From a virus (taxonomy: Duplodnaviria; Heunggongvirae; Uroviricota; Caudoviricetes), in IMG/VR virus record IMGVR_UViG_2648501400_000018: a DNA stretch of 32,660 bases, one strand, 5' to 3'. Within the stretch, counting starts at the first letter, position 1. Each line of letters starts with the position of its first letter. Under the pieces are notes generated by a model. It was not told the DNA's origin, searched no databases, and saw nothing but the letters and a program-made list of their open reading frames with translations. The position numbers and the translations under genes were made by a program. This document shows, piece after piece, positions 1,603-30,688 of the stretch.

Positions 1603-1603
1603 C

Positions 1604-2388: not shown

Positions 2389-2423
2389 CACGTCCTTTCC
2401 GGTTAATTTGTGAAATACCATTT

Positions 2424-3548: not shown

Positions 3549-3557
3549 AACTCCCCC

Positions 3558-6537: not shown

Positions 6538-6548
6538 TAACTTGCTCC

Positions 6549-7084: not shown

Positions 7085-7094
7085 TGCGCTCTCC

Positions 7095-7811: not shown

Positions 7812-7849
7812 AGTGTTCTCATTAAGAACAAAACATGAAGGACTATGTT

Positions 7850-8371: not shown

Positions 8372-8448
8372 ACATGTTGTAAACAAAACAAAAAAGCGTG
8401 CAGACAGCACGCATTTACTATCTAACTCTACTGAAGGTTTCAGATTCT

Positions 8449-10685: not shown

Positions 10686-10750
10686 ACCCCTTTAAAAGCC
10701 TTCCTGCCAGCCATCCCCCACACTGCCTTCATCACCCAATGGAGGCACTT

Positions 10751-11038
10751 ATGAAAAATCTTTTCCCGCGTTTATCCGGCTGGCTGTTTGCCGCAGTTGT
10801 TTTGTTTGTACAAATAGTCGCGATCTCTCCGCAACAGGTTCCGGTGGTGGGTTACAAATTAAGCCTGATCTCACTGGCGGCGGTGCTGGGCTACTGGCTT
10901 GATCGCAGCCTGTTTCCCTATGCGCGACCTAATCATTTTTATCTGACGGAAGGTGAGCAACTATTGTTTGCTGCGTCCATGCTGCGCCGAGCCGTGATTG
11001 TCGCTGCTGTGTGCCTGGCCGTAGCGATGGGGATGTGA
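10751..11038 (+). CDS. Putative holin (three hydrophobic segments)
   Basis: Start placed at ATG preceded by GGAGG; hydrophobic stretches WLFAAVVLFVQIVAI, LSLISLAAVLGYWL, AVIVAAVCLAVAMGM; immediately upstream of the endolysin. Confidence 0.4.
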   Translation: MKNLFPRLSGWLFAAVVLFVQIVAISPQQVPVVGYKLSLISLAAVLGYWLDRSLFPYARPNHFYLTEGEQLLFAASMLRRAVIVAAVCLAVAMGM

Positions 11039-11040
11039 CT

Positions 11041-11757
11041 ATGGGCTGGCCACAAATTACCTGGATTGTGTTGGTCTCGCTGTCGTTAGGGATAGAGATG
11101 ATGATGCACAGCAGGACGCGTAAGCACAATTTCTGGGGACACTTAGCCAGTGTATTAGTAGTCGCTGGTTTGCTCTGGTGCGGCGGCTTTTTCAGCCAGG
11201 CGCACGCCGCCGAACCGCCCACCGCCGCGAAACCTTACCGCGCCGAATTGGTGCGTAATGCCCGCGCGGTATGGGGGATGGATGCGCCTGTCGCCGATTT
11301 CGCCGGGCAGTTCCAGCAGGAATCCGGCTGGAATCCCGCCGCCCGTTCACCCGTTGGTGCGCAGGGGATGGCGCAGTTTATGCCCTCCACTGCCGACTGG
11401 ATCAGCAAACAATTCCCGGAACTACGTTCCCGCGAGCCGTTCAATCCGTCGTGGGCCATCCGCGCGCTGATGCAGTACGACCAGTGGCTGTGGCAGCGCG
11501 TGAGTGGGCGCGATAACTGCCAGCGGATGGCGTTCACCTTAAGCGCCTATAACGGCGGCTTAGGCTGGGTGAACCGCGATAAAAAACTGGCGACGCAGCG
11601 CGGATTAAATGCTGCCGTCTGGTTCGATGCGGTGGCGACGGTCAACGCCGGGCGCAGCGCCGCCAACTGGCGCGAAAACCGGGGTTATCCGCAACGCATC
11701 CTGTACCAGAACGCGCCGCGCTATCTGTCATGGGGAGGGGCTAACTGTGTTCGATAA
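11041..11757 (+). CDS. Lytic transglycosylase-type endolysin (SLT domain) with N-terminal signal or SAR-like segment
   Basis: SLT-like motifs QESGWNPAA and GAQGMAQFMPSTADW; N-terminal hydrophobic stretch LASVLVVAGLLWCGGFFSQAHA; ATG 3 nt after the holin stop. Confidence 0.7.
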   Translation: MGWPQITWIVLVSLSLGIEMMMHSRTRKHNFWGHLASVLVVAGLLWCGGFFSQAHAAEPPTAAKPYRAELVRNARAVWGMDAPVADFAGQFQQESGWNPAARSPVGAQGMAQFMPSTADWISKQFPELRSREPFNPSWAIRALMQYDQWLWQRVSGRDNCQRMAFTLSAYNGGLGWVNRDKKLATQRGLNAAVWFDAVATVNAGRSAANWRENRGYPQRILYQNAPRYLSWGGANCVR

Positions 11758-12340
11758 ACTCAAAACGGCGGGGTTAGCCGTCACGCTGATACTGCTATTC
11801 GTCGTGTTTGGCGGGTATTTCGCGTGGCTGCAAGGCCACAAACACGGCTACGAGAAGGCGCAGACTGAATGCCTGCGCCTGCAAAAACAGCAGGCCAAGG
11901 CCGGGCAACGGGCGTTGCAGGAGGAAATAAACCGCAGCCAGCAGCAGTTGATTCACATCCGGGAAAGCGAGCAGACCTATCTCACCCGGACAGAGGAACT
12001 CACTGCACGCAACGCCGAACTACAGAGGAAAATTAACGATGTTACGCAGCATTACGTTGACGAAAAAGGCAAGGCTCATCCTTTGGCCTGCGTGTTTACT
12101 CGCGGCTTCGTGCAGCAGTACAACGCCTCCCTCGGCGTGTCCGCCCCGGATGCTGCCGCCGCTACCCGCGACGCTGGCGCAGCCGCCGCAGCCGTTCAGG
12201 GCGCTGACGCCCGGTTACGCGCCTCCGGCGTCAGCCAGCGCGACATCCTCGCCAATCTCGCCGACAACGGCCAGCGCTGCCAGCAGTTAGCGCTCCAGGT
12301 GCGCGGCTTGCAGAACTATATCGCGGAGGTGTCGCGATGA
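11747..12340 (+). CDS. Rz-like inner-membrane spanin
   Basis: Start at in-frame GTG (VFDKLKTAGLAVTLILLFVVFGGYFAWL: N-terminal TM) followed by a Q/R/E-rich coiled-coil region; directly follows the endolysin. Confidence 0.55.
   Translation: MFDKLKTAGLAVTLILLFVVFGGYFAWLQGHKHGYEKAQTECLRLQKQQAKAGQRALQEEINRSQQQLIHIRESEQTYLTRTEELTARNAELQRKINDVTQHYVDEKGKAHPLACVFTRGFVQQYNASLGVSAPDAAAATRDAGAAAAAVQGADARLRASGVSQRDILANLADNGQRCQQLALQVRGLQNYIAEVSR
12039..12290 (+). CDS. Rz1-like outer-membrane lipoprotein spanin embedded in the +1 frame of the Rz-like gene
   Basis: 83 aa ORF wholly inside the Rz-like gene; signal peptide ending LLAASC then a proline-rich mature region, the classic embedded Rz1 architecture. 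Confidence 0.5.
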   Translation: MLRSITLTKKARLILWPACLLAASCSSTTPPSACPPRMLPPLPATLAQPPQPFRALTPGYAPPASASATSSPISPTTASAASS

Positions 12341-12651
12341 TGTTGCAGATTGACTTCTGGGAGGTGATCTCGATGGCGCTGTCGTTTTTGGGCGTGCTGG
12401 TCGCCGCGGGGAAGATGCTGCTGACCCAGATTGAGAAGCGCCTCAACGAACGCTTTGAGTCGCTGGAAGCGGCACGTAAGGAGTCGGAATCCGGCTGGTC
12501 ACGGCTGGAGCGCGAGTTCCTGGAGTTCCGCGCCGACATGCCGCTGAACTATGTGCGGCGCGAGGATTATATCCGGGGACAAACGGTTATCGAGGCCAAG
12601 CTGGACGCGCTGTATAACAAAATCGAACTGTCGCAAGGGGGTGGTAAATGA
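12337..12651 (+). CDS. Hypothetical membrane-anchored coiled-coil protein
   Basis: 104 aa ORF; N-terminal hydrophobic segment ISMALSFLGVLVAAG then charged helical region; ATGA overlap with upstream gene. Confidence 0.4.
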   Translation: MMLQIDFWEVISMALSFLGVLVAAGKMLLTQIEKRLNERFESLEAARKESESGWSRLEREFLEFRADMPLNYVRREDYIRGQTVIEAKLDALYNKIELSQGGGK

Positions 12652-12954
12652 TGGACAAAGTACGCCGTGAGTCGATGCGCTGGAATCTGATGCTGGCGCT
12701 GAACAAGGCGCGGCCCTATACCAGCAATGAGCGATTTTTGCTGGCGGTGATGCAGGCGATTTACCCGGACGCCACCGGCGCTGGAGTTGCGGCGTGAGCT
12801 GGACTATCTGGCTGACCGCCGGATGGTGGATCTGGTGAAGGAACCCTCCGGCACCTGGTTCGGTGATTTGACCCGTCTCGGCGTTGATGTGGTCGAGTAC
12901 ACCGTGGACTGCGGCCCCGGCATCGCCCGCCCGCAAAAGTACTGGAGTGAATGA
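12648..12954 (+). pseudogene. Small late gene apparently split by a +1 frame change near 12775-12797
   Basis: ATG at 12648/12651 opens a 49-codon frame ending TGA at 12795-12797; the next frame is open from 12751 to a TGA at 12952-12954, and together they fill the gap to the gp27-like gene. Confidence 0.35.
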
Positions 12955-12955
12955 T

Positions 12956-13501
12956 ATGGCCCGCCGCAGCACCATCGACAAACTGCCCGAAGAGGTCAGG
13001 CGCTGGCTGGAACGGGCGCTGACCAACAGTGGCTTCAGCGGTTATGCCGAACTGGAGGAACTGATGCGTGATAAGGGCTACCTCATCAGCCGCAGCGCCA
13101 TTCACCGTTACGGCCAGAAGATTGAACGCCGATTTACCGCTATTCGCGCGGCCACCGAAGCCGCGCGGATGCTGACCGAGGGTGCCGCTGACGATCAGGA
13201 TGCCCGTTCGGAGGCGGTGATTGCGCTGATCCAGACTGAACTGTTTGAGTCTATCGTCCAGTTGCAGGAAGCCGAAGATGGCAAGATTGACCCGCAGGAG
13301 CGTGTGGCACTGCTGTCGAAGGTGGCGAAGAACGTTGCCACGCTGTCACGCGCCAGCGTCAACCTGAAGAAGTTTCAGCAGGAAGTCCGGGCGAAAGCGG
13401 AAGCTGCCGCCAGCAACGCTGAGAAGATCGCCCGTAAAGGTGGTCTGTCTGCGGAGTCCGTGCAGGCGCTACGCCGCGAGATTCTGGGGATCGCCTCATG
13501 A
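12956..13501 (+). CDS. Mu gp27-like protein (putative small terminase / DNA-binding packaging protein)
   Basis: Internal ATG gives MARRSTIDKLPEEVRRWLERALTNSGFSGYAELEELMRDKGYLISRSAIHRYG, matching the remembered N-terminal pattern of Mu gp27; directly upstream of the large terminase. Confidence 0.6.
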   Translation: MARRSTIDKLPEEVRRWLERALTNSGFSGYAELEELMRDKGYLISRSAIHRYGQKIERRFTAIRAATEAARMLTEGAADDQDARSEAVIALIQTELFESIVQLQEAEDGKIDPQERVALLSKVAKNVATLSRASVNLKKFQQEVRAKAEAAASNAEKIARKGGLSAESVQALRREILGIAS

Positions 13502-15024
13502 CCGGGTTAGCGCCAGTTCTCCAGGATACCTCCGGGCTTGATGCGCCGGTGGCGCTGATGCCCTACCAGCAACGCTGGGTGGCGGATGACTCCCCGCTGA
13601 AGGTCATCGAGAAAAGCCGACGCACCGGCATCACCTGGGCAGAGGCGTCTGATAACGTCCTGACCGCCGCCTCATCCGCCGCCGCTGGTGGTATGAACGT
13701 CTATTACATCGCCTACAACCAGGATATGACCATTGAATATATTCAGGCGTGTGCAATGTGGGCGCGGGTGTTCAACTATGCAGCCAGCGAGATAGAGGAA
13801 GGATTCTGGGACGATGAAGATGATGAGAAGCACATCAAGACGTACACTATTCGGTTCCCGGAATCTGGCTTTCGTGTGGTGGCATTATCCAGCCGCCCGT
13901 CTAACCTGCGTGGCCGTCAGGGGATCATCGTTGTGGATGAAGCCGCATTCCATGAGCAGTTACGCGAGCTGCTGAAAGCGGCGCTGGCGATGCTGATCTG
14001 GGGCGGCAAGGTGCGGGTGATCTCCACGCATGATGGCGACGATAACCCCTTTAACGAACTGATTAACGATATCCGCGCCGGGCGTCGGGCGGGCAGTATT
14101 CATCGGATAACGTTTCGTGAAGCCATCGCTGAAGGATTGTATCGCCGTGTCTGCCTGCGCACCGGGCGTGAATGGACACCGGAAGGTGAAAGCGACTGGA
14201 TGGCATCGGTGTACCGCTTCTACGGCGACGGGGCCAGCGAGGAACTGGACTGCGTGCCTGCACATTCCGGCGGCGCATGGTTATCCCGCGCGTTGATTGA
14301 GTCGCGCATGTCACCGGACACGCCGGTACTGCGTTTTACCTGTCCGCCCGGTTACGAGCTGAAACCTGACCATATCCGTGAATCAGAAACAAATGACTGG
14401 CTGACGACCCATCTGCTGCCATTGCTGGAGGCTCTGCCTGCAGAGGCTACCTCTTATGTTGGTCGTGACTTTGGTCGTAGTGGTGATTTATCTATCGACG
14501 TGCCGCTGATCCAGTTGAAGAACCTTGTGCGCCGGGTGCCGTTTATTCTGGAGCTGCGGAACGTACCTTTTAAACAGCAAGAGCAAATCACCTGGTATCT
14601 GCTGGACAGACTGCCCCGTCTGATGGGGGCCGCCTTTGATGCGCGTGGCAACGGTGCGTATCTGGCGGAGTACGCTATGCAACGGTATGGAGCAAGTCGG
14701 GTGCAGCAGGTGATGTTAAGCGAAGGCTGGTATCGGGATCATATGCCGCCGGTTAAAGCGGAGCTGGAAGATGGCACGCTGGATGCATTGCCCAGAGATG
14801 AAGATACGCTCAACGATCTGCGGGCTGTTCAGGTGATTAACGGCGTGCCGCGCATCCCCGATACCCGCAGCAAAGCTAAAGCCGACGGTGGTCAGCGTCA
14901 CGGTGAAGCAGCGATAGGAACGGCACTGGCATATTACGCCAGCCGCGAACTGAATAAAGGCCCGGTGACGGTGAACTCCCGCCGCCGTCGCCAGTCCGCC
15001 CGATTACTGGAGAACTATAACTGA
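13498..15024 (+). CDS. Terminase large subunit (Mu gp28-like)
   Basis: 508 aa ORF; position between gp27-like and portal genes; ATPase-like N-terminal and acidic nuclease-like C-terminal regions; ATGA overlap with the upstream gene. Confidence 0.7.
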   Translation: MTGLAPVLQDTSGLDAPVALMPYQQRWVADDSPLKVIEKSRRTGITWAEASDNVLTAASSAAAGGMNVYYIAYNQDMTIEYIQACAMWARVFNYAASEIEEGFWDDEDDEKHIKTYTIRFPESGFRVVALSSRPSNLRGRQGIIVVDEAAFHEQLRELLKAALAMLIWGGKVRVISTHDGDDNPFNELINDIRAGRRAGSIHRITFREAIAEGLYRRVCLRTGREWTPEGESDWMASVYRFYGDGASEELDCVPAHSGGAWLSRALIESRMSPDTPVLRFTCPPGYELKPDHIRESETNDWLTTHLLPLLEALPAEATSYVGRDFGRSGDLSIDVPLIQLKNLVRRVPFILELRNVPFKQQEQITWYLLDRLPRLMGAAFDARGNGAYLAEYAMQRYGASRVQQVMLSEGWYRDHMPPVKAELEDGTLDALPRDEDTLNDLRAVQVINGVPRIPDTRSKAKADGGQRHGEAAIGTALAYYASRELNKGPVTVNSRRRRQSARLLENYN

Positions 15025-16499
15025 TGCCACGCGGAATTTACGTTACCCCTACCGAGTTTGTTTCATTCAGCGAGCCGACCAAAAATCTGTCAGAGCAAAT
15101 CGCCGTTCGTTCGCGCTCCATTGATTTCTACGGGCTGGGAATGTACCTGCCCAATCCCGATCCCATTCTTAAAGCGCAGGGGCGCGATATCAAAATCTAC
15201 CGCGAACTGCGTAGCGATCCCTTAGTTGGCGGCTGTATTCGTCGACGCAAGGCAGCGGTCAAGGCGCTGGAGAACGGCGTCGAACGTGGCAATGCCACGG
15301 CGCGGGTGTTTCGCTTTGTGCGTGATCTGTTTGATGATTTGGATATTTCACGCATTACGGGCGAGATGACCGACTCTGTTCTCTACGGCTATCAGCCATG
15401 TGAACTGATGTGGACACGCGGCGGTAAATCCTGGGCGGTGTCTGATGTGGTGGGTAAGCCTCCGGAGTGGTTCCAGTTCGATATGGAAAACCGCCTGCGC
15501 TTTCGTGCTCGCAATGCCGGGCTGGAGGGCGAGCTGACGCCGCCGTATAAGTTCCTGTTGCCGCGTCAGGATGCGACCTACGATAACCCGTATGGCTTCC
15601 CTGATTTGTCGATGTGCTTCTGGCCCGTCACCTTCAAAAAAGGCGGCATGAAGTTCTGGGTGCGCTTTGCCGAGAAGTACGGCTCGCCGTGGGTTGTTGG
15701 CAAGCATCCGCGCGGTACGTCGCAGGGCGAGATTAACCAGTTACTGGATTCGCTGGAGGCGATGATTGAGGACGCCGTGGCCGCTATCCCGGACGATTCT
15801 TCTGTAGACATCAAAGAGGCGGCAGGTAAAGCCGACAGCAGCGATATCTACCAGAACCTGATCACCCTGTCGCGCGGTGAGATTTCTATTGCGCTGCTGG
15901 GGCAGAATCAGACCACTGAAGCCAGCGCCAACAAAGCCTCGGCGCAGGCCGGGCTGGAGGTGACTGATGATATCCGTGACGGTGATGCATCCATTGTAAC
16001 CAGCGCGTTTAACCAGCTTATCCGCTGGATTGTGGAACTGAACTTCGGTGCGGTGGACTGCCCTGTGTTCCGTATGTGGGAGCAGAAAACGGTTGATGAG
16101 GTGCAGGCCGGACGCGACCAGAAACTGTCGCAGTCAGGCGTCAAGTTCACCCCGCAATACTGGAAGCGCGAGTATCAGTTACAGGATGGCGATATCGACG
16201 AAACCCCGGCACCTGCATCGTTGGCGTTCGCTGAGGCGGTAGCCGCAGACGTGGCTGCGCAGGAGCTGCTGGACGCGGCGCTGGATGAACTGATGACCAG
16301 CGGCAAGCTGGACGATACGCTGACGCCGGTGCTGGCTCCCTTGTTTGCGCGGGTACAAAACGGCGTCGCGCCAGCGGTGTTGATGGGCGAACTGGCGGAG
16401 CTGTACCCGCAGATGAACACCGACGACCTTACAGAACGGCTGGCGCGTGTGTTGTTTGTGGCGAATATCTGGGGGCGGCTCAATGAGCGTCACGAGTAG
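15024..16499 (+). CDS. Portal protein (Mu gp29-like)
   Basis: 491 aa ORF following the large terminase; size and synteny typical of Mu-like portal proteins. Confidence 0.7.
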   Translation: MPRGIYVTPTEFVSFSEPTKNLSEQIAVRSRSIDFYGLGMYLPNPDPILKAQGRDIKIYRELRSDPLVGGCIRRRKAAVKALENGVERGNATARVFRFVRDLFDDLDISRITGEMTDSVLYGYQPCELMWTRGGKSWAVSDVVGKPPEWFQFDMENRLRFRARNAGLEGELTPPYKFLLPRQDATYDNPYGFPDLSMCFWPVTFKKGGMKFWVRFAEKYGSPWVVGKHPRGTSQGEINQLLDSLEAMIEDAVAAIPDDSSVDIKEAAGKADSSDIYQNLITLSRGEISIALLGQNQTTEASANKASAQAGLEVTDDIRDGDASIVTSAFNQLIRWIVELNFGAVDCPVFRMWEQKTVDEVQAGRDQKLSQSGVKFTPQYWKREYQLQDGDIDETPAPASLAFAEAVAADVAAQELLDAALDELMTSGKLDDTLTPVLAPLFARVQNGVAPAVLMGELAELYPQMNTDDLTERLARVLFVANIWGRLNERHE

Positions 16500-17304
16500 T
16501 GAGTTAGCCTATTGCCTGAGTCTGCCGCCAAAGCGGGCCATCGGCTATCTGGAGTCCAAAGGCTATACCCTGTCGTGGGACTGGGAGGAGGTCTGGCAGG
16601 AAGCTCACGCCCACGCTTTTACCGTCGCGAAGGTGACAAAGCTGGATATACTGGAAGATATCCGCCGCGCGCTGGAGCGGTCACTGGCGGAGGGCAAAAC
16701 CGGCGCGTGGTTTCGTAAGGAACTGGAGCCGGTGTTGAAAGAGAAAGGCTGGTGAGGCGAGAAAGAAATCACCGACCCGGACACCGGGGAAGTGACCATC
16801 ATCCAGCAAGGCAGTTCCTGGCGACTTGATACCATCTACCGCACCAATATGACGGTGGTTTACAGTGCCGGGCGCTGGGCCGAGCAGATGGAAAACGTCG
16901 ACGATCGTCCATATGGGATGTACTGTGCCATTTGCGACAACCGCACCCGTCAACCCCACCTCCTGCTGCATCAGATGGTCATGCGTCTTGATGATCCATT
17001 CTGGCAGTCATTCTACCCGCCTAACGGCTGGGGGTGCCGCTGTACAGTGATAGCAATGACTGAGGCGGATGTCCGCCGCCGCAGGCTGAAAATCACGGCC
17101 TCCGGCGATGCGCTGGGGGAAACGATGAAACTGATATCGATGCAAACCGGAGAATTGCAACCGGTGGCCACCTTTACTATTGGCAATACGATTATCACCC
17201 CAGATGCGGGCTGGTCATACGCGCCGGGCGCGGCGTACCGCCCGGACTTAGCCAAATACCAGGGCGTGCTCGCGCCGCTGGCGCAACAGGAGCTGGCACC
17301 ATGA
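16483..17304 (+). pseudogene. Head morphogenesis protein F-like (Mu gp30 / SPP1 gp7 family) interrupted by an in-frame TGA at 16753-16755
   Basis: ORFs 16447-16755 and 16792-17304 are in the same frame, separated by one TGA (…KEKGW*GEKEITDPDTGE…) with 12 open codons between; the downstream part carries the Phage_Mu_F-like motif DNRTRQPH...DDPFW...PPNGWGCRCT. Confidence 0.5.
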
Positions 17305-17837
17305 TGGAGATTAAGCTGGAGGATAATGCGTTACAGCACGCGCTGAAGAGCCTGGAGATCGGCTGCAAAGATTTAACCCCGGCGATGCACAAGATTGCCG
17401 GATCGTTACAGACGGAAACGGCAGAAACCTTCGAGGCTGAAGGTCGCCCAGCATGGGTGCCATCGCTTGCGGCGAAGAAACGCGGTGGCCCGACGCTGCG
17501 CGATACCGGTGCGCTGGCACGTTCGGTGACCACAGAGTACGACGCGCAGCACGCGGTAGTGGGATCTAATCTGGCTTATGCCGCCATTCACCAGCTCGGC
17601 GGCGAGGTGAAGCGCAAGGATCGGAAGGTGTACTTTAAGAAGGACGAAAATGGCCGCGTTGGTCGGTTTGTGAAAAAGAAAGACAGCGACACCGAGCGAA
17701 CCGCTGCCGACCATACCGCCACCTATCCGGCACGTCCGTTTTTGCCTGTGGATAGCGACGGCAACCTGACCACCCGCGCAAAACGGGTGGTGCTGGCGAC
17801 GATTCTGCGCCATCTTGAATCAGCGGCCCGTAGATAA
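17301..17837 (+). CDS. Virion morphogenesis protein (Mu G-like)
   Basis: 178 aa ORF; ATGA overlap with the F-like gene; motif RDTGALARSV...VGSNLAYAAIHQLGG typical of the phage virion-morphogenesis family. Confidence 0.6.
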   Translation: MMEIKLEDNALQHALKSLEIGCKDLTPAMHKIAGSLQTETAETFEAEGRPAWVPSLAAKKRGGPTLRDTGALARSVTTEYDAQHAVVGSNLAYAAIHQLGGEVKRKDRKVYFKKDENGRVGRFVKKKDSDTERTAADHTATYPARPFLPVDSDGNLTTRAKRVVLATILRHLESAARR

Positions 17838-17850
17838 GCCGTTTCTCCGC

Positions 17851-17868
17851 GCCGGGCGAATGCCCGGC
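17851..17868 (+). terminator. GC-rich hairpin downstream of the G-like gene (possible terminator/attenuator; no U-tract)
   Basis: GCCGGGC-GAAT-GCCCGGC, 7 bp stem, about 14 nt after the stop; not followed by a T-run, so intrinsic-terminator status is doubtful. Confidence 0.25.
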
Positions 17869-17879
17869 TTCACCGCCCA

Positions 17880-18010
17880 ACCTGCTTTATAAAGATTTAT
17901 AAAGCCCTTTATGCCCCGCTTTTCCCTCTCTCTCCCGGCGCGATGATTAAAGCGCTTTAAAAGCGATTTTCGCCCGTTTTTATAAAGCTATTCCCTGACG
18001 TACTACGGAG
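17880..18010 (+). promoter_or_regulatory. Candidate late promoter region upstream of the I-like gene with repeated TTATAAAG motifs and a 14 bp palindrome
   Basis: 178 bp non-coding gap inside the late operon; TTATAAAG at about 17887, 17897 and 17980; perfect palindrome TTAAAGCGCTTTAA at about 17947-17960. Confidence 0.35.
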
Positions 18011-18015
18011 GGAAT

Positions 18016-19107
18016 ATGCCCGCACCTATTCATATCTTTAAATCCGGCACGCATACCGCGATGAACGGTACGCAGATGCCGTTCACAGCGGCGGAGCTGG
18101 CCGCCTGTGCAGCCGCTTATGATCCGGCAGTGCATGAAGCGCCGCTGGTTATCGGTCATCCGACGCATGACGCCCCGGCTTACGGCTGGGTAAAGTCGTT
18201 AACCGCCTCGCAGGATGATTTGCAGGCCGAGCCTGACCAGGTTGATCCGGCCTTTGCCGAACTGGTCGGAGCCGGACGTTACAAGAAAATCTCCGCCTCG
18301 TTCTATCTGCCGGACTCCCCTAATAACCCAAAGCCCGGCGCGTTGTATCTGCGTCACGTGGGTTTTCTCGGTGCGCAGCCGCCTGCCGTGAAAGGACTGA
18401 AAGCGGTGGAGTTCAGCGAGCAGGAGGAAGGCGTGGTTGAGTTCGCCGACTGGGGACTGGCAACCAGCGCCGGAATGTTTGCCCGCCTGCGCGATTTCCT
18501 GATCAGCAAGTTCAGCCTCGACGAGGCCGACAGCGTTTTGCCGTCCTGGCAAATCGATGCGCTACGCGATGAGGCGCAGCGTGATGACCCGAAACCCGAT
18601 CCGGCTTTCAGTGAGCCAAAACCTGAACCAAAGGAGAAATCCGTGACTGAAGAAGAAATTAAGGCGATGCGCGAAGAGAATGCCCGCCTGAAAGCCGACG
18701 CCGCTGACCGCGCGAAGGCTGACGTAAAACGCCGTGCCGACGAGCTGCACGCCACCAACGTCTCCTTTGCCGAGGAGCTGGTGACCGGCGGCAAGCTGAC
18801 GCCTGCGGCTAAAGGCGTGGTTGTCGCGCTGCTGGATGAAGTAAGCAAAGGCGATGCGCCGGTGGAGTTCGCCGAGGGCGATGTGAAGAAACCACTGGCG
18901 ATGGCCTTTAAAGAACTATTGACAGGCGCTGCGCCGGTGCTGGATTTCAGCGAAGTTGCCAGCAAAGACCGCGCCAACCGCGACGTCGTGCGCACCGTCG
19001 ATTTTGCCGACGCCGACCCGGAGCAACTGGCGGTGCATAACAAGGCCGTAACGCTGGCGAAGGCCGAAGGCATCAGTTACGAAGCCGCCGTTAAACGCTG
19101 CTTATAA
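18016..19107 (+). CDS. Mu I-like prohead protease/scaffold protein
   Basis: 363 aa ORF; N-terminal PLVIGHPTHDAPAYGWV region and charged K/E/A-rich coiled-coil-like C-terminal half, as in Mu I (protease with in-frame scaffold). Confidence 0.6.
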   Translation: MPAPIHIFKSGTHTAMNGTQMPFTAAELAACAAAYDPAVHEAPLVIGHPTHDAPAYGWVKSLTASQDDLQAEPDQVDPAFAELVGAGRYKKISASFYLPDSPNNPKPGALYLRHVGFLGAQPPAVKGLKAVEFSEQEEGVVEFADWGLATSAGMFARLRDFLISKFSLDEADSVLPSWQIDALRDEAQRDDPKPDPAFSEPKPEPKEKSVTEEEIKAMREENARLKADAADRAKADVKRRADELHATNVSFAEELVTGGKLTPAAKGVVVALLDEVSKGDAPVEFAEGDVKKPLAMAFKELLTGAAPVLDFSEVASKDRANRDVVRTVDFADADPEQLAVHNKAVTLAKAEGISYEAAVKRCL

Positions 19108-19118
19108 AGGAGAAAAGA

Positions 19119-19370
19119 ATGGCAAATCATTTACAGGGTAAACGCGTCGTTAACCCTATCCTGACCACCGTTGCGCGTGGCTATAAAAACGCGGCGTTTA
19201 TCGGGGAGAAGATTTTCCCGGTGGTGGAGATGGATAAAGAAGGCGCAACGGTGCCGACGTTCGGCAACGGCGTGTTTGCCGTCTATGAGACGAAACGCGC
19301 CGTGGGTGCTGACAGTAACGTCATGATCCGTGAGAAAACCGGTAAAGCTGGACGCAGTGACATATATTGA
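19119..19370 (+). pseudogene. Short ORF of uncertain identity joined out of frame to the sheath gene (possible 5' remnant of the major capsid gene, or an aberrant sheath N-terminus)
   Basis: 83 aa ORF in the position where Mu-like phages carry the major head gene T; terminates inside the start of the sheath reading frame (overlap 19330-19370). Confidence 0.3.
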
Positions 19371-20100
19371 TGCCCCCATCGGCACCACGTTCAGCCAGGT
19401 GCTTGCAGGTCGTGGCGCATCCGGGACGATCAATTTTAACACCAGCTCCGAACGCGCCCGTCTGTGCTATCCGCATGTCAAGGTGTACGACGCCGCCTCC
19501 GACAGCGAACGGCTGGAGCCGCTCTCGTCGCGCGCCGCTGGCCTGCGTGCCAAAGTGGACCTGGATAACGGTTTCTGGTGGAGCAACTCCAACCAGGAAA
19601 TCCTCGGCATTACTGGTGTGGAACGTTCGCTGTCGGCGATGATTGATGACCCGCAAAGCGAGGTGAACCAACTGAACGAAAACGGCATCACCACCGTTTT
19701 CAACAGTTACGGCACTGGGATGCGACTGTGGGGCAACCGTACCGCCGCCTGGCCAACCGTGACCCATATGCGCAACTTTGAAAATGTGCGGCGTACCGGG
19801 GATGTGATTAACGAGTCGATCCGTTATTTCAGTCAGCAGTATATGGATATGCCGATTAACCAGGCGTTGATTGATGCGCTGACCGAGTCAGTGAATGCCT
19901 ACGGGCGCAAACTGATTGGCGACGGCGCGCTGCTCGGTTTTGAATGCTGGTATGACCCGGCGCGTAACGAACAGACCGAGCTGGCCGCTGGCCATCTGTT
20001 GCTGAGTTACAAATATACGCCGCCTCCGCCGCTGGAACGGCTGACGTTTGAGACGGAAATCACTTCGGAATATCTGGTTAATCTGGAAGGTAAACGCTGA
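19330..20100 (+). CDS. Tail sheath protein, P2 FI-like C-terminal portion (N-terminal region missing or frameshifted)
   Basis: AAGLRAKVDLDNGFWW, LNENGITTVFNSYGTGMRLWGNRT and YKYTPPPPLERLTFETEITSEYLVNL match the remembered C-terminal two-thirds of P2 FI; reading frame opens only at 19330. Confidence 0.6.
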   Translation: MRKPVKLDAVTYIDAPIGTTFSQVLAGRGASGTINFNTSSERARLCYPHVKVYDAASDSERLEPLSSRAAGLRAKVDLDNGFWWSNSNQEILGITGVERSLSAMIDDPQSEVNQLNENGITTVFNSYGTGMRLWGNRTAAWPTVTHMRNFENVRRTGDVINESIRYFSQQYMDMPINQALIDALTESVNAYGRKLIGDGALLGFECWYDPARNEQTELAAGHLLLSYKYTPPPPLERLTFETEITSEYLVNLEGKR

Positions 20101-20624
20101 TGGGCGGAAAAATTGAAGTTAACCGTATTACCAACGCCAATATCTATATCAACGGTAATAACCTGCTGGGCCGCGCGGAGGAGATTAAGCTGCCGGATAT
20201 CAGCATGATTATGCAGGAGCATAAGGCGCTGGGGATGGTCGGTAAAATCGAATTGCCTGCCGGGTTCGATAAGCTGGAGGGCGAGATTAAGTGGAACTCG
20301 TTTTATCGCGAAGTGATGCGTCATGCGGCCAATCCGTATAAGTCGCTGGCGTTGCAGTGCCGCTCCAGCATCGACCGCTATAACTCGACGGGCCGTATCG
20401 ATGAAATCCCGCTGGTGACGCACCTGACCATTATGTTCAAGAAGAATCCGATGGGGACGTTTAAGCAGCACGAAAACCCGGATTTTTCCAGTGCCTTTAG
20501 CTGCACCTATATCAAACAGGTGGTGGACGGCGAGACGCTGCTGGAGCTGGATTATCTGGCGAATATCTTCAAAGTGAATGGTGTGGATCAGTTGAGTACC
20601 TATCGCGCCAATATTGGCGGTTAA
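20100..20624 (+). CDS. Tail tube protein (P2 FII-like)
   Basis: 174 aa ORF directly after the sheath (ATGA-type overlap); pattern NANIYINGNNLLGRAEEIKLP...LLELDYLANIFKVNGVD resembles the P2-type tube family. Confidence 0.6.
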   Translation: MGGKIEVNRITNANIYINGNNLLGRAEEIKLPDISMIMQEHKALGMVGKIELPAGFDKLEGEIKWNSFYREVMRHAANPYKSLALQCRSSIDRYNSTGRIDEIPLVTHLTIMFKKNPMGTFKQHENPDFSSAFSCTYIKQVVDGETLLELDYLANIFKVNGVDQLSTYRANIGG

Positions 20625-20672
20625 CCGCTCATTAAAGCTGTTTAATACTGTTTGTGTAGTCCCTCCTCAATA

Positions 20673-20698
20673 CTGTCCTCATCATTTGATGAGGACAG
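20673..20698 (+). promoter_or_regulatory. Perfect 12 bp-stem hairpin covering the ribosome-binding site of the tail chaperone gene
   Basis: CTGTCCTCATCA-TT-TGATGAGGACAG in the tube-chaperone gap; the GAGGA inside the 3' arm is the only Shine-Dalgarno-like sequence upstream of the ATG at 20704. Confidence 0.4.
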
Positions 20699-20703
20699 CT
20701 ACC

Positions 20704-21027
20704 ATGAAAGACACTTTCGAACTGCAATACCCTTTCACCGCGCCCTCCGGGCAGCACATCGACGAACTGCAACTGACCCGCCTGAAGGTGAAGGATATGC
20801 GCGCTGCGCGCCGTATCAGCGACAAACCGGAGGACTGGGATGAACCGCTGCTGGCGGCGATGACCGGGCTGGTGCCGGAAGATTTAGCTGAAATGGATCT
20901 GGCGGATTACCAGGCATTGCAGAAACGATTTCAAAACATGCTTGGGCTGGGCGGCGAATCCGCAGCAACTGTGGCAGGCGATGGCACTGCTGGCGCGGTG
21001 GTTTCGGTTTCAGCCGGGGGAAATTGA
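20704..21027 (+). CDS. Tail assembly chaperone (P2 gpE-like)
   Basis: 107 aa ORF between tube and tape-measure genes; low-complexity G/A/S-rich C-terminus; overlapped by an out-of-frame extension ORF. Confidence 0.55.
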   Translation: MKDTFELQYPFTAPSGQHIDELQLTRLKVKDMRAARRISDKPEDWDEPLLAAMTGLVPEDLAEMDLADYQALQKRFQNMLGLGGESAATVAGDGTAGAVVSVSAGGN

Positions 21028-21103
21028 CGGGCTGGCGGTGGATGATTTTGAGCGCTGGCTGGATGAGGCCAGCGCGCAGATTAAGCGTGAGAGCGGAAGC
21101 TGA
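20888..21103 (+). CDS. Out-of-frame extension of the tail chaperone (E'-like), reachable only by translational frameshift
   Basis: The +1 frame is open from about 20888 to a TGA at about 21101-21103 and reads protein-like sequence (NPQQLWQAMALLARWFRFQPGEIDGLAVDDFERWLDEASAQIKRESGS); slip site not identified. Confidence 0.4.
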   Translation: MKWIWRITRHCRNDFKTCLGWAANPQQLWQAMALLARWFRFQPGEIDGLAVDDFERWLDEASAQIKRESGS

Positions 21104-21341
21104 TATGGCTGATAGCGGTAAACAACACGGTGAGTGCAACCAGAACGGGTTCCAGTACCAGCGCCACCAGTAACGCCGCCAGTGAGCCGAAGAAAACCCC
21201 GCCGCAGACAAACAACAGAATAACAAACCCGTCGTTGCTTGCTGTTAATCCGTAACTTGCCATCAGGTAAAGAATGGTTAACCAGGCAACGGCAGCGCAG
21301 GTAAAACGAAGCGCATCAAACACCATCGTTATTTTGTTCAT
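21081..21341 (-). CDS. Small membrane protein encoded antisense to the tail operon
   Basis: 86 aa ORF with 2-3 hydrophobic helices (AAVAWLTILYLMASYGL; FVILLFVCGGVFFGSLAALLVALVL) filling an otherwise non-coding gap; AGAGGGAA Shine-Dalgarno-like sequence upstream of its ATG. Confidence 0.5.
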   Translation of the reverse strand: MNKITMVFDALRFTCAAVAWLTILYLMASYGLTASNDGFVILLFVCGGVFFGSLAALLVALVLEPVLVALTVLFTAISHISFRSHA

Positions 21342-21382
21342 ACCGTTCCCTCTTCTTTGTCTCTTTTACGGGAGTGTAAAAC

Positions 21383-24070
21383 GTGGCTGCTGAATTTTCA
21401 ATCGGTGTGGTGATTAAAGGGATGATGGCGGGTTCGCTGTTGTCGGCTATTGGCGGAACGCAAAAAACCTTAAAAGGGCTGGAATCCACCACCGCACGCC
21501 TGAAAAAGCAACATGCAGATATGACGCAGGAACTGGCGCGTAATACCAATGGCAGCACCGAAGCCACGGCGCGACTAAACCGCGAGTTACAGAGTGTGGG
21601 CAGGACGCTGGAGAACCTGAAACTGCGGCACGATAACTTAGCTAACGCTGCCAGCCGGAGCGCTGCGCTGCGCTCCCAGCGCATGGAACTTTACGGACGC
21701 GGTCTGGAGACGATGGCGCAGGCAAAGGTAGTGTCGTCCCCCGTTGTTGCCTCGGTAAAACAGTATGCCGCCTTTGAGTCCGGGCTGCGTGATATCGCCG
21801 TGACGGGGGATCTGGACAGTAAGCAGGAGGCAGCAATTGGCAATGCCATTCGTCAGGCGGCAGGTCAGGTTAACCAGATGCAGGAGACGTTGCTTGGCGG
21901 CGTGAATCAACTGGTGGCTGATGGCATGAATCCAGAGAAAGCGGCAAATATGATTGGCCTGCTGGGTAAAACAGCCACCGCCACCGGCGCTGATATGACC
22001 GACCTGGCGAAAATGACCTATGCCTTCAGCGACGCGCTAAAAATCGGCGATGGCAAGGAGATGGAAGAGGCCTTTGCGCTGGCCGCTGCGGGTGCCAAAA
22101 CCGGCTCTTTTGAGCTGAAAGATATGGCAAAAGCGTTGCCGACGCTGGCAAAAAGTTTTGCCGCCAAAGGTATTACTGGCCCGGAGGCGATCAAGGAAAT
22201 TATTGCTTCACTGGAGCTGGGAAAAGGTGCAGGTTCGGCGGAGGAAGCCGTCACCAACATGACCAACTGGATGGGGGCGATGACGCGCGGTGACACTATC
22301 AAGAAATATGAAAAAGCGGGCGTGAAATATGATGCCTCCATGCAGGATTATGTTGCCAAGGGGTATTCGCAGTACGAAGCCTCGCTGATGATTGCCAATG
22401 AGTTTATTGACGGGAAAGGTGCGGCCTTTAAAAAGCAATGGGAGGCTGCGGGGGCAAAAGGCGACGGTGAAGCACAGCAAAAATTGATGGAATCCTTTGG
22501 TCTGTCAGAAATCTTTACCGATATCCAGACCGTCAACCATTTGCTGTCAATGCGTCAGAACTGGAGTCAGTACCAGACTAAAAAAACACAGATGGCGACC
22601 CCGGAAGCGCAAAAGACGCTGGATACCGACTTCGCAAAACAGGGCGATACGCTGGAGGCTCGTTGGCGAAAATCACAGGTTGCGCTGAATGAAGTGGCGT
22701 TGAGTATCGGCAGTTCGTTGTGCCCGGCGCTGATATCGCTGATGGATACCGTGGTGCCGTGGCTTGATGCGCTGGGGAAATGGGCAGCGGCGAACCCGGA
22801 AATTATCGCCGGGATCGGGAAAGCGGCGGCGGGATTTTTTGTTATTAAAAGTTCGATGATTGGCACCCAGATTGTGGCCAACTATTTATTTTCCACCTGG
22901 GCGGGCGGCGCAAAGGCGATTGCATTACTGGCTGCAAAAGGTACGCAGTTAAAAGCTGCCTTTTCCGTTGGTGGTAAACTGGCAGGCATCACTAAGTTGT
23001 TCGGCTCACTGGCGCGTGGCGCGTTGTCACTGGGTAAAATACTCGGTGGCGGACTCCTGCGCGGTCTGATGATGGCAGGACGCGCGGTGTTGTTTTTGGG
23101 CCGGGCGCTGATGATGAATCCCATCGGTCTGATCATCACCGGCATCGCCGTGGCCGCGTATCTGATTTACCGCTACTGGGGGCCGATTTCCGCTTTCTTT
23201 AAGCGGCTGTGGGCGCAGGTCACGGTAGCGTTTCGTGGGGCGTGGAGCGGCATCAAAGGTATCTGGAGTGGTGTGTCGGGCTGGTTCTCTGGTATCTGGG
23301 CGCAAATCAAAACCGCGTTCAGCGGCGGGATTGGCGGCGTGGCAAAGCTGATTACCAACTGGTCGCCGCTGGGCCTGTTCTATAAAGCCTTTGCCGGGGT
23401 GATGAAATACTTCGGTATTGATATGCCGAAAAACTTTACCGATTTTGGCGGCAATCTGATTAACGGTCTGGTGAACGGTATCGGCAATGCGCTGACTGCC
23501 GCGAAAGAGACGGTCGTTAACTTTGGTAACTCGATTTCAGGCTGGTTTAAGGAGACGCTGGGGATTCATTCCCCCAGCCAGGTGTTTGCCGGGTTCGGCG
23601 ACAATATCGCGCAAGGGGCCGCTATCGGTATCAACCGCACCGCCCCGGATGCGATTTCCGCCAGCCAGCAGATGGCACAGGCATTGATTCCACCCGCACC
23701 GGGTATCGTTGTTCCGGGCATTGCGGTGTCGGCCATTCCCCGACAGTCAGACGTTATGTTACATGGTGCTATGGGTGCGGCGCTGTCACAACCAAAACCA
23801 TTGCCGCCGATAACCCCCGGTGTCGCAGTCCCTGCTGTTCCTGAACTGCCGAAAAGTACCGCGCCAGCCGCCAAAGGCCGCAATGCCAGTGCGCACGTAC
23901 CGGGGCAGTCGTCCGGGGTGAATGTCACCTTCGCGCCGCAAATCACTATCAAAGGCGCAGCCTCAACGACCGAAGGTGAAATCACCTCGGCGCTGAAACT
24001 GAGCCTGCACGAACTGGAGAAGATGATGGAGCGGATTATGGCGCGTCGTGAACGCCGGGAGTATGCGTAA
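21383..24070 (+). CDS. Tail tape measure protein
   Basis: 895 aa ORF downstream of the chaperone/frameshift pair; long helical A/K/Q-rich regions and G/W-rich hydrophobic repeats (GIWSGVSGWFSGIWAQIKTAFSGG) typical of tape measure proteins. Confidence 0.75.
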   Translation: MAAEFSIGVVIKGMMAGSLLSAIGGTQKTLKGLESTTARLKKQHADMTQELARNTNGSTEATARLNRELQSVGRTLENLKLRHDNLANAASRSAALRSQRMELYGRGLETMAQAKVVSSPVVASVKQYAAFESGLRDIAVTGDLDSKQEAAIGNAIRQAAGQVNQMQETLLGGVNQLVADGMNPEKAANMIGLLGKTATATGADMTDLAKMTYAFSDALKIGDGKEMEEAFALAAAGAKTGSFELKDMAKALPTLAKSFAAKGITGPEAIKEIIASLELGKGAGSAEEAVTNMTNWMGAMTRGDTIKKYEKAGVKYDASMQDYVAKGYSQYEASLMIANEFIDGKGAAFKKQWEAAGAKGDGEAQQKLMESFGLSEIFTDIQTVNHLLSMRQNWSQYQTKKTQMATPEAQKTLDTDFAKQGDTLEARWRKSQVALNEVALSIGSSLCPALISLMDTVVPWLDALGKWAAANPEIIAGIGKAAAGFFVIKSSMIGTQIVANYLFSTWAGGAKAIALLAAKGTQLKAAFSVGGKLAGITKLFGSLARGALSLGKILGGGLLRGLMMAGRAVLFLGRALMMNPIGLIITGIAVAAYLIYRYWGPISAFFKRLWAQVTVAFRGAWSGIKGIWSGVSGWFSGIWAQIKTAFSGGIGGVAKLITNWSPLGLFYKAFAGVMKYFGIDMPKNFTDFGGNLINGLVNGIGNALTAAKETVVNFGNSISGWFKETLGIHSPSQVFAGFGDNIAQGAAIGINRTAPDAISASQQMAQALIPPAPGIVVPGIAVSAIPRQSDVMLHGAMGAALSQPKPLPPITPGVAVPAVPELPKSTAPAAKGRNASAHVPGQSSGVNVTFAPQITIKGAASTTEGEITSALKLSLHELEKMMERIMARRERREYA

Positions 24071-24976
24071 TGTTTGCCGTACTGGGGGATATTGAGTTTG
24101 AGGTGGTGACCTACTGGGACGGCTTTGATGCGTCGTTTGGCATGGATTACGCCGAGCACGCACGCATCGAAGGCAAACCGGGGTTGCAGTTTATCGGCGA
24201 AAAGCTGGATGAAGTCAGCATCAGTCTGGTGTTCCATGACCACTATTGCCAGCCGGATGTTGAACTGGCGCGGCTGCGTGGCGCATCAGGCGCTGGCGCT
24301 GGTGTTCGGCAACGGGGACTATCGCGGCTGGTTTGTGGTAACCGATATTCGGGCGACCAGCCAGCAGACCGATGGCCTCGGTAATGTGCAGGCGTTAAGT
24401 GCAGAGCTGTCGCTGAAGGAGTACATCGGCGATCCGAAAAATCCCCTGACGCCACCGGCTGTGTCCGGGGACGATCCGAATATCGATTCGTGGTCTGACG
24501 ATGCCGACGACAGTTTTTCCGGCAGCGATATGTTCGACGGCCTAAGCGATATTACCGACGGGCTGGATGCGGCATCGGACGCGCTGGATGCCGCAGAGCA
24601 GGCGTTCGATGAGGCAGTGTCGTGGGCGGAAGATGTGGTGGAGCAAGTTGAAGATGCGATTGATGACGTACTTTCACCGCTGGAGGACGTTCTCAATGAG
24701 GTGTTATCACCACTCGATGAGGTGATGCAGGCGCTGGAGGGTATCATGGGCGGCGGCGTACTGACCGATGCTCTCGGCGAGGTCGGGCAAGTCGCCTCGC
24801 AGATTTACGATGAAATCAGCAGTACGTTGACCGGGCTTGACGGTATCACCCCCGACAACTTTGCCGATCTGTTCTCGCAGGCACTGGACGTGGTGCGCAA
24901 CGGTCAGTCATTGATGGAAGCGTGTTCTCCCGCCGTTAGCAGGCTGGCGGCGGCAATCATTACCAGGAGCGTGTGA
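24070..24976 (+). pseudogene. Tail protein gpU-like / Mu DNA-circulation (N)-like gene with a +1 frame change near 24277-24290
   Basis: Frame A (24070-24384) has a gpU-like N-terminus up to ...DVELARLR; frame B (24125-24976) continues the family pattern from ...HQALALVFGNGDYRGWFVVTDI and carries an acidic C-terminal region. Confidence 0.5.
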
Positions 24977-25194
24977 TGGGCGGCTGGATTGAACATATCA
25001 CCACCGAGGGCGAGCGCTGGGATAATCTGGCGTTCCTCTATTACGGCGATCCAATGGGCTATGAGCGCATCATTGTCGCTAACCCCCATATTGCGATCAC
25101 GCCGACACTGGCCTCCGGGCTGCGGTTGCGTATTCCGGTGATCGGCCCGATGCAGGTGCATAACGTTGATGAGGTGCCGCCGTGGCTCAGGTAA
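24973..25194 (+). CDS. Tail protein X-like (LysM-like small tail protein)
   Basis: 73 aa ORF; pattern GERWDNLAFLYYGDPMGYERIIVANPHIAITPTLASGLRLRIP resembles P2 gpX. Confidence 0.6.
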   Translation: MMGGWIEHITTEGERWDNLAFLYYGDPMGYERIIVANPHIAITPTLASGLRLRIPVIGPMQVHNVDEVPPWLR

Positions 25195-26282
25195 ATGCCG
25201 TTATCACCCCCGTTTTCACCCTGTTTTACGGGCAGAAAGATATCACTCACGATATTGCTCCTTTTGTCCTGAGCGTGACGTATACCGACAGTCTCAAGAG
25301 CGAATCGGATGAAATCGACGTGCAGGTGGAAGACACCGCCGGGCGCTGGCGCGAGGCGTGGTATCCGGGCAAAGGCGATATGCTGATGCTGAAGTTGGGC
25401 TATCAGGGCGAAGCGTTGCTGGACTGTGGAGCGTTCTCCATCGATGAGATTGAGCTGGGCGCACCGCCGGATACGGTATCCATTCGCGGCGTGGCGACGT
25501 CGGTCAACAGCGCTCTGCGTACCGCCTCCAGCGAGGGCTACGAAGAGACGACGCTGGATGCGATTGCCAGCCGTATCGCGCAGAAGCATGGTCTGAAGCT
25601 GGTCGGTCAGATAGAGCCGATTACCATTGACCGGGTGACGCAATACGCGGAAACCGACGTCGGTTTTCTGAAGCGGCTGGCGGGTGAGTATGGTTATGCG
25701 CTGAAAGTCACCACTGGCGAGCTGGTGTTTTCCCATCTGGCTACACTGCGAAGTAACGCGCCGGTGACGACGCTGACGCCGCAGGATGTAGCGCGCTGGT
25801 CGCTGCGCGATACCATCAACCGCATCTATAAGGATGCAAAGGTGGCGCATCAGAAGAGTAAAGAGAAGACGCTGGTGACGTACCACGCCGACGGCCCGCC
25901 GACCACGGAGACGCGTGGTAAATCGACCAGCGCCGATACGCTCAAGGTCAATGCACGGGCGGCGGATCAGGGGACGGCGCAGGTGAAAGCCGAGGCGGCG
26001 CTGGATGACCATAACGAGTATCAGCAGACCGGTTCGCTCTCGATGATGGGCAACACGCAGCTTATCGCCGGGAACAAAATCACTCTCGACGGGTTCGGCG
26101 TGCTCTCCGGGGAGTGGCTGATCACCAGCGCCCGTCACTCGTTTGACCGTTCATCGGGCTACAGCACCGAAATTGAGGTCGGACGTGGCCCGAAAACGGC
26201 CTCCGGCGGCGGGAAGAAGAAAAAACCGGATACGCTGACCGTCTATCACCCGGACGGCCCACCCACCCAGGAGAAAAAATGA
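25182..26282 (+). CDS. Baseplate hub / late control D-like tail protein
   Basis: 366 aa ORF immediately upstream of the gpV-like spike gene; size and synteny as P2 gpD / Mu P-like proteins. Confidence 0.55.
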   Translation: MAQVNAVITPVFTLFYGQKDITHDIAPFVLSVTYTDSLKSESDEIDVQVEDTAGRWREAWYPGKGDMLMLKLGYQGEALLDCGAFSIDEIELGAPPDTVSIRGVATSVNSALRTASSEGYEETTLDAIASRIAQKHGLKLVGQIEPITIDRVTQYAETDVGFLKRLAGEYGYALKVTTGELVFSHLATLRSNAPVTTLTPQDVARWSLRDTINRIYKDAKVAHQKSKEKTLVTYHADGPPTTETRGKSTSADTLKVNARAADQGTAQVKAEAALDDHNEYQQTGSLSMMGNTQLIAGNKITLDGFGVLSGEWLITSARHSFDRSSGYSTEIEVGRGPKTASGGGKKKKPDTLTVYHPDGPPTQEKK

Positions 26283-26770
26283 AAGGCGTCACCCGACAGA
26301 CCGGGATTATCAGCGATATCGACGAGGTGAAGGTGTGCGTGCGCGTCACCCTGCCGGAATGCGACGATCTGCGCACCAACTGGCTCCCCATCCTGCAACG
26401 CAATACGCAGGACAATAAGGACTACTGGCTGCCGGATATCGGCGAGCAGGTGGAGGTGCTGCTGGATGATAACGGCGAGGATGGCGTGGTGCTGGGGGCG
26501 GTCTATTCGTCGGTGGATACGCCACCGGTGACGGACAAAGACAAGCGCTATGTGCGGTTCTCCGATAAGGCCGCGATTGAGTACGACCGCAAACAGCACC
26601 AGTTGACCATTAATGGCGGCATTGAAAAAATCGTGATTGAGGTGAAAACCAGCGTCAGCATCACCGCGCCGCAGGTGGTCATCACGGGTAATGTCCGCGT
26701 CACCGGCAATATCAGTGCGTCAGGCTCTATCATCGACGCTGGCGGCAATACCAACCATCACTCTCATTAA
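26279..26770 (+). CDS. Baseplate assembly protein V-like (spike)
   Basis: 163 aa ORF; N-terminal pattern GIISDIDEVKVCVRVTL...WLPDIGEQVEVLL...VVLGAVYSS resembles the P2 gpV N-terminal domain. Confidence 0.65.
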   Translation: MKGVTRQTGIISDIDEVKVCVRVTLPECDDLRTNWLPILQRNTQDNKDYWLPDIGEQVEVLLDDNGEDGVVLGAVYSSVDTPPVTDKDKRYVRFSDKAAIEYDRKQHQLTINGGIEKIVIEVKTSVSITAPQVVITGNVRVTGNISASGSIIDAGGNTNHHSH

Positions 26771-26816
26771 AGCGGTTTAATATCGCCACTTTAGCAACGG
26801 GGGCGACAATGCCCCC

Positions 26817-30685: not shown

Positions 30686-30688
30686 CAC

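Follow-up and report, generated by a model that had tools for sequence, protein, structure and literature searches.

The sequence analyzed here, a 32,660-nucleotide (nt) stretch held as IMG/VR record IMGVR_UViG_2648501400_000018 (hereafter, the window, by which we mean the whole stretch), spans approximately one whole prophage of E. coli in which several virion genes are broken, and how these breaks arose is the subject of this analysis. Judged by its sequence, the element is a BcepMu-type (Mu-like) transposable prophage, since its transposase shares 68% identity with that of BcepMu over 96% of the protein and 69% with that of phiE255 (tblastn); the transposases of Klebsiella phage KP12 and Escherichia phage PhiKM are ~76% identical to it. 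BcepMu-like transposable phages were described by Summer et al. (2004, J Mol Biol 340:49, as cited in PMC2628397). The open reading frame (ORF) map and the Pfam matches resolve the window into a leftward early operon (20..7319, minus strand), with genes for Mor, GemA, a DUF3164 protein, a MuB-like AAA ATPase and an rve/DDE transposase, and a rightward block (7401..32660, plus strand), in which a helix-turn-helix (HTH) repressor gene is followed by a cargo of low guanine-plus-cytosine (GC) content, lysis genes, a Mu-type head module (gp27-like, terminase, Mu portal, F, G and protease/scaffold genes), a P2-type contractile tail and a Dam methyltransferase. The Pfam matches include Phage_Mu_Gp27, Portal_Mu, Phage_Mu_F, Phage_tail_S, sheath, tube, GpU, X, D and V, as well as the regulators Mor and GemA. 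Both prophage termini lie just beyond the window (by ~125 bp on the left and ~84 bp on the right), and the element is inserted between efeB and phoH, with a 6-bp GCTTTC duplication on both sides. The target duplication of the relative L001 (introduced below) is also 6 bp long (GCTTCC), the termini are common to all copies, and members of the family occupy various chromosomal sites (between ybjC and grxA, on the pdeL/betT side, on the phoH side, at nag, and others). Contig JHSW01000008.1 of E. coli assembly GCA_001266175.1 contains the window at 100% identity, as does the Logan assembly of SRR19671056.

Lesions were called against close relatives recovered from an E. coli genome set and through exact-protein look-ups, namely L001 (E. 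coli OkiPb01694, ~90% nt identity), whose structural module is uninterrupted, and L003, L004, L014 and L025 (99.7-99.96% identity). Deposited phages searched with megablast were rejected as references, the nearest being only ~77% identical and too distant for lesion calling. An earlier note on this DNA, prepared from the letters alone, had listed a split small late gene, an in-frame stop in F, a missing capsid with a truncated sheath, and a frameshifted U/N-like gene, and the comparison with the relatives bore out all four. The small late gene (12648..12954, plus strand; phrog_436, 101 amino acids (aa) when intact) has gained one G at ~12777 (CCACCGCGCTGG > CCACCGGCGCTGG), a frameshift that leaves a called product of 49 aa; by tblastn, aa 1-41 are encoded in frame 3 and aa 44-101 in frame 1. 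This 49-aa form is present on 1 contig and the intact form of the same allele on 23. The head-morphogenesis gene F (16483..17304, plus strand; Phage_Mu_F, 273 codons) carries an opal stop at 16753..16755 (TGG>TGA, W91*); the resulting 90-aa N-terminal fragment is found on 7 contigs and the intact form of the same allele on 17. No tRNA gene, and hence no opal suppressor, is encoded in the window.

The loss of the capsid and the shortening of the sheath are the outcome of a single 2,834-bp deletion with its junction at 19343|19344, without microhomology (L003 11329..14162), which takes codons 76-312 of the capsid gene, the cement, Gp36-like, Gp37 and 76-aa genes, and ~220 codons of the sheath gene. 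What remains is codons 1-75 of the 312 of the major capsid gene (19119..19343, plus strand; phrog_1005), which read into out-of-frame sheath sequence to form an 83-aa ORF (19119..19370), and the C-terminal ~251 of 471 sheath codons (19344..20100, plus strand), the N-terminal ~47% being gone; the products of this deletion are on 1 contig only. The gpU-like tail gene (24070..24976, plus strand; phrog_788, 305 aa when intact) has lost 11 bp (GTGACGCAATG) at 24277|24278, between GTG direct repeats, and the ensuing frameshift breaks the gene within the GpU domain. The intact protein, a GpU domain with an acidic C-terminal extension, matches phrog_788 end to end; the 282-aa fragment is present on 5 contigs and the intact form of the same allele on 212. 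Programmed frameshifting in gpU was ruled out, since the corresponding single frame of the relatives, 11 bases longer, stays open over 305 aa, and since the break interrupts the GpU domain itself. A gpU pseudogene apparently shared with L001 (flagged by the annotation pipeline PGAP at L001 29052..30037) turned out to be an annotation artefact, the frame being open over 328 aa, and the long acidic C-terminal extension of the gpU-like family seems to mislead annotation.

While these four lesions do lie in virion or late genes, the damage is not confined to such genes as had been proposed, because an early gene is broken as well. The GemA/gp16-family gene (448..801, minus strand; Pfam GemA) encodes 117 instead of 134 aa owing to a nonsense change that had been overlooked (Q118*, CAG>TAG, stop at 448..450): window position 450 is A, the corresponding base in L006, L007 and L008 is G, and the gp16 protein of L001 aligns over residues 1-134 through the stop. 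A single contig carries the 117-aa form, compared to 231 contigs with the intact form of the same allele. Between this stop and the start of Mor downstream lie 48 nt; in relatives, the end of GemA coincides with the start of Mor and, because the two genes meet in this way, one might speculate that the early stop could also reduce translation of the late-gene activator Mor. One further length difference concerns tail protein I (28275..28985, plus strand; 236 vs. 239 aa), in which one copy of a 9-bp tandem repeat is gone in frame (LVDLVD>LVD); this loss, which marks the clone at the efeB-phoH site, is probably harmless. All remaining genes are full length compared to L001 and the close relatives. 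On the host side, efeB of the window strain (L015 15166..15906), adjacent to the right end of the prophage, has a 1-bp deletion (CCGCTTCC>CCGCTCC) that divides it into 246 + 176 aa (intact, 423 aa, in L014), which may reflect a mutator background or a general build-up of pseudogenes in this strain.

That is, essential virion genes are inactivated in the window compared to intact relatives (a capsid of 75 codons, four head/neck genes gone, a sheath short of ~220 codons, a frameshifted gpU and a stop in F), which supports a defective prophage, presumably no longer able to make particles. The genes that had been described as uninterrupted are indeed full length and collinear with those of the relatives. 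These include the repressor-like gene (7401..7811, plus strand; HTH_3/CI-type, 136 aa), which is divergent from the early operon (promoter-like site for the latter at 7384..7357, minus strand) and whose identical protein is found on 27 contigs, the three cargo genes described below, and, on the minus strand, the MuB-like AAA ATPase gene B (2424..3548, 374 aa; Pfam AAA_22) and the transposase gene A (3558..5303, 581 aa as called in relatives; Pfam rve), the latter differing from near-identical copies by a single synonymous change only. The lysis block (10751..12651, plus strand), comprising a holin, an SLT transglycosylase, and 197-aa and 104-aa genes, has gene lengths equal to those in intact relatives. 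Because A, B, both ends and the lysis genes are intact, the element may still transpose and kill the cell upon derepression, and would probably still be lethal then.

The states of the lesions in other isolates are nested. Insertion between efeB and phoH is known from about a dozen contigs, all at least 99.8% identical; when 5,426 complete E. coli genomes were queried with the junction, 3,090 matched the host half only and none matched across it. All full-length copies examined at this site carry the F stop (L003, L005, L031, L033 and L035), and codon 91 is TGG in L004 and L023-L027, near-identical prophages not seen at efeB-phoH. The 11-bp gpU deletion is carried by L003, L005, L016 and L031; L014/L035 and L033 retain an intact gpU but have a 187-bp frameshifting deletion in the head protease/scaffold gene, located between 12-bp direct repeats (L033 and L035; window equivalent 18673..18847). 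The GemA stop, the extra G and the 2,834-bp deletion are found in the window strain only, with the full lesion set in one NCBI contig and one Logan assembly, and the relatives at the same site (99.8-99.96% identical) have fewer or different lesions. At this site also lies L007 (GCA_040253905.1), in which a ~32-kb deletion joins host efeU to window position 6474 (L007 3955..3961), so that efeO and efeB are lost together with the entire late region, the cargo, the repressor and those early-operon regulators that lie upstream of 6474, and A, B and Mor are retained. Decay is seen elsewhere in the family, too: an independent nonsense change in the tape-measure gene (Q330*; window equivalent 22370) characterizes the groups of L011 (464) and L024 (17735..20422), which belong to a different clade of this prophage, the L024 group alone representing 16 contigs; in other strains (L028-L030), the cargo gene for the 402-aa protein is shortened to 229 or 205 aa beside insertion sequence (IS)-type (rve) transposase genes; and in L030 the phage transposase A is split into 403 + 176 aa.

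The earlier note read a meaning into virion genes being broken where other genes are intact, but this contrast is not beyond chance. With its deletions restored, the element measures 35.5 kb, of which 69.8% is late, 20.6% early, and 9.6% repressor plus cargo. Under a model in which lesions fall in proportion to length, the probability that four of four lesions are late is 0.24; with GemA included, four of five are late where 3.5 are expected, and the probability that none of the five falls in the repressor, cargo, A or B is 0.39. Hence, no non-random sparing of putatively beneficial genes is seen among the five window lesions. The ratio of nonsynonymous to synonymous substitution rates (dN/dS), proposed earlier as a check, gave no support to retention either. 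Computed pairwise to L001, a comparison that mirrors the history before inactivation, dN/dS is 0.03-0.29 overall, 0.03-0.15 for the broken genes and 0.06-0.15 for the cargo; raised values in the broken genes were looked for and not found, their values lying within the range of the intact genes, and the cargo values are not below those of the virion genes (0.03-0.29). Since broken and intact genes share one range, nearly all of the divergence is older than the inactivation. On the window branch itself, 7 substitutions were counted (1 nonsense, 3 missense and 3 synonymous); they are compatible with relaxed selection over the whole element and too few for a test. Lesion density in the prophage (0.14 per kb) does not differ significantly from that of the host flanks, which show 1 frameshift in ~15.7 kb (p=0.41, with only part of the flank having a close comparator).

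Based on these results, we consider it likely that the breaks in the virion genes represent ordinary, recent and neutral decay in a vertically inherited prophage of one small clone. A single transposition of a BcepMu-type element into the space between efeB and phoH in an E. coli clone would have been followed by vertical inheritance, with decay proceeding through ordinary mutation. The F opal stop would be the shared first hit so far; the 11-bp gpU deletion would then have occurred in one branch, the 187-bp protease/scaffold deletion in another and the ~32-kb deletion probably in a third, and the window strain alone would subsequently have gained the GemA stop, the +1 frameshift in the small late gene and the 2.8-kb capsid-to-sheath deletion. 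Most lesions lie in virion genes because virion/late genes make up ~70% of the element, and the intactness of the repressor, cargo, A and B follows from their small target size and the short time elapsed. The placement of the breaks fits random decay, and there is no evidence of retention for the cargo. The lesions themselves, their nesting among isolates, the insertion site and the recency of the events can be read directly from the assemblies, and we infer from them that the decay was neutral.

A few observations weigh against this account. About 30 independent lesions would be needed to detect a sparing of the cargo, and a modest real protection is compatible with the counts. The window branch combines 5 disruptive events with ~6 other substitutions, a high proportion, which may be a sign of selection for inactivation or, because host efeB is frameshifted in the same strain, at a mutator background. 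UGA is decoded as tryptophan at low frequency in E. coli (PMC7918605); because such decoding would restore wild-type F, the opal stop may be leaky and perhaps not the inactivating event.

The cargo consists of three intact plus-strand genes, encoding a 173-aa lipoprotein (7850..8371), a 343-aa NA37/YejK-like nucleoid-associated protein (8449..9480; PF04245, E 4.5e-74) and a 402-aa protein (9477..10685), with a 4-bp overlap between the last two (9477..9480), and its GC content is 0.43-0.46 vs. 0.58-0.61 for the late genes. The 402-aa protein, characterized from its own sequence rather than by comparison with Pag2B, has a net charge of -11 over residues 1-265 and hydrophobic segments at 284-309 and 346-379. 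Type II PANGU is an abortive-infection system of E. coli composed of Pag2A, a YejK-like nucleoid-associated protein, and Pag2B, a transmembrane effector with an acidic DNA-mimic domain at its N-terminus and a transmembrane domain at its C-terminus; the nucleoid protein is freed upon phage-induced genome degradation and works with the effector, and protection by the E. coli system, for which both genes are reportedly needed, was shown experimentally (bioRxiv 10.64898/2026.04.06.716658). The cargo shares with this system the NA37/YejK-family protein, an overlapping next gene (within the gap of under 40 bp by which the two-gene operon is recognized) and the E. coli host, and the acidic N-terminal part and C-terminal hydrophobic segments of the second product may correspond to the two domains of Pag2B. 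It differs in being phage-borne and in having a lipoprotein gene in front, the likeness being one of architecture and not of Pag2A/Pag2B sequence. The cargo is a plausible phage-borne example of Type II PANGU architecture and may well benefit the host, because it resembles a defence operon of this type. PADLOC returned no match for the cargo, and PADLOC-DB 2.0 contains no PANGU Type II model.

The earlier note had gone on to suggest a cryptic prophage kept for its cargo. That the prophage is defective stands, with the capsid, neck genes, sheath, gpU and F all hit, but retention for the cargo is unsupported. Under such a domestication, selection would keep the repressor and the lysogeny-expressed cargo (perhaps also A and B) and leave the virion genes free to decay, and we regard this as unlikely. 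It would account for the intactness of the repressor, cargo, A and B, for the position of the low-GC cargo directly downstream of the repressor on the same strand, and for the higher conservation of the cargo relative to L001 (97-98% aa identity vs. 90% overall), and the pairing of NA37 with an overlapping gene for an acidic protein with two putative transmembrane segments matches the architecture of a demonstrated defence. Yet the lesion pattern is within chance and includes an early gene; the lesions are too young to reveal selection; and the cargo dN/dS is unremarkable. Nor is the cargo kept in all decayed derivatives: L007, at the same site, dropped the cargo and repressor and retained A and B, and the effector gene is truncated beside IS-type transposase genes in other strains. 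The predicted lysogenic expression of the cargo found no convincing promoter or terminator in support: a promoter scan of 6900-11200 was not above shuffles and, although terminator-like hairpins exceed shuffles, none lies on the plus strand in the gap after the cargo, where the fold at 10660-10770, with a z of -0.78, is not significant. The cargo is, moreover, equally present in intact, presumably functional siblings and thus represents regular phage equipment, not a residue of domestication. Less probable still, in our view, is that the element persists after virion loss through host benefit from repressor immunity, the PANGU-type operon and, possibly, active A/B transposition; if it did, the isolates found here would form a natural time series of the first steps from a prophage to a mobile defence island.

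The high share of disruptive changes among the mutations of the window branch, and the repeated, independent hits on sister lineages, are also what would be expected if the lesions had been selected for disarming a dangerous prophage. We find this improbable because, judging from Mu biology, the loss of virion genes should not stop killing via replicative transposition and lysis; disarming mutations should strike the killing genes (A, B, holin, SLT) or their regulators first, and these killing genes and both ends are intact, so the lethality that is probably retained argues against such selection. Still more remote is a satellite-like way of life, in which a related prophage in the same cell would supply the capsid, sheath, gpU and F. 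E. coli genomes can carry up to three places that match this family, and the terminase, portal, transposase and both ends are intact, as a dependent phage would require; but no second copy was seen among the contigs retrieved for the strain, in a search of its genome that was not exhaustive, and only one strain, at one site, has the full lesion set, the opposite of what a mobilized element would show. It is equally hard to credit that the prophage is truly intact and that the lesions are errors of sequencing or assembly. The extra G and the 2.8-kb deletion are, to be sure, in two records only, possibly of the same strain, and were judged on assemblies and not on reads. Against this, the F stop and the gpU deletion recur over several independent runs and assemblies, the NCBI assembly and the separately built Logan assembly are base-for-base identical over the window, and none of the changes (the substitution, the 11-bp and 2,834-bp deletions, and G>GG) lies in a long homopolymer, the large junction being in unique sequence; an artefact is therefore very unlikely.

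With the BcepMu family (including phiE255, KP12 and PhiKM) the element shares an rve/DDE transposase (68-76% identical) and an adjacent MuB-like ATPase, an early operon opposite in strand to the repressor, lysis and structural genes (the BcepMu transposase itself is on the minus strand, at 4770-6476 of its record), head genes of the Mu type (gp27, portal, F and G) combined with a contractile tail of the P2 type, and the use of many insertion sites with a short target duplication. It differs from that family in its enterobacterial host, its NA37-based cargo and its five disruptive lesions. The intact siblings, L025 (GCA_002509785.1), L027, L004/L026 (~99.7% identical) and L001 (~90%), have the gene order and cargo of the window, with F (273 aa), the small gene (101 aa), capsid (312 aa), sheath (471 aa) and gpU (305 aa) all uninterrupted; they occupy other insertion sites where the site is seen and are free of the window lesions in the regions covered. 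Prophage domestication has reportedly been described by Bobay et al. (PNAS, 2014). Classical E. coli prophages termed cryptic or 'grounded', for example in K-12 (reviewed in PMC6379469), resemble the window prophage in being integrated phages that lost essential virion functions with some accessory genes intact. However, they are old, heavily deleted and conserved over diverged strains, with some genes under purifying selection after inactivation, whereas the window prophage is nearly full length, limited to one small clone, and only a few substitutions away from intact siblings.

A few additional features of the window stand apart from its decay. The large terminase of the window's clade (13498..15024) shares no more than 28% identity with its L001 counterpart, compared to 84% and 97% for the adjacent gp27-like protein and portal, respectively, indicating a clean module swap within the head operon. 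An 86-aa hydrophobic ORF (21081..21341, minus strand) is located between the genes for the tail assembly chaperone and the tape measure, in antisense orientation to the tail operon; it is kept (86-92 aa) in all relatives and may be a moron. At the right end, a Dam-type N6-adenine methyltransferase gene (31887..32660) takes the place of com/mom of L001 (36844..37735), and only the first 25 codons of Com are recognizable in the window (31829..31903). In the early regulatory region, the ner-like gene (7095..7319) encodes 74 aa in the window and 78 aa in L006-type copies, which have 12 extra bases at its 5' end (~7310).

In conclusion, a prophage with broken virion genes next to an intact repressor, cargo and transposition genes gives the appearance of retention, but this pattern is what length-proportional random decay is expected to produce and should not be cited as evidence of domestication. 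The process itself is well known, and the window represents one more instance of it. Nonetheless, the well-resolved series of naturally decaying copies at a single chromosomal site could serve to calibrate the speed and the order in which transposable prophages erode.

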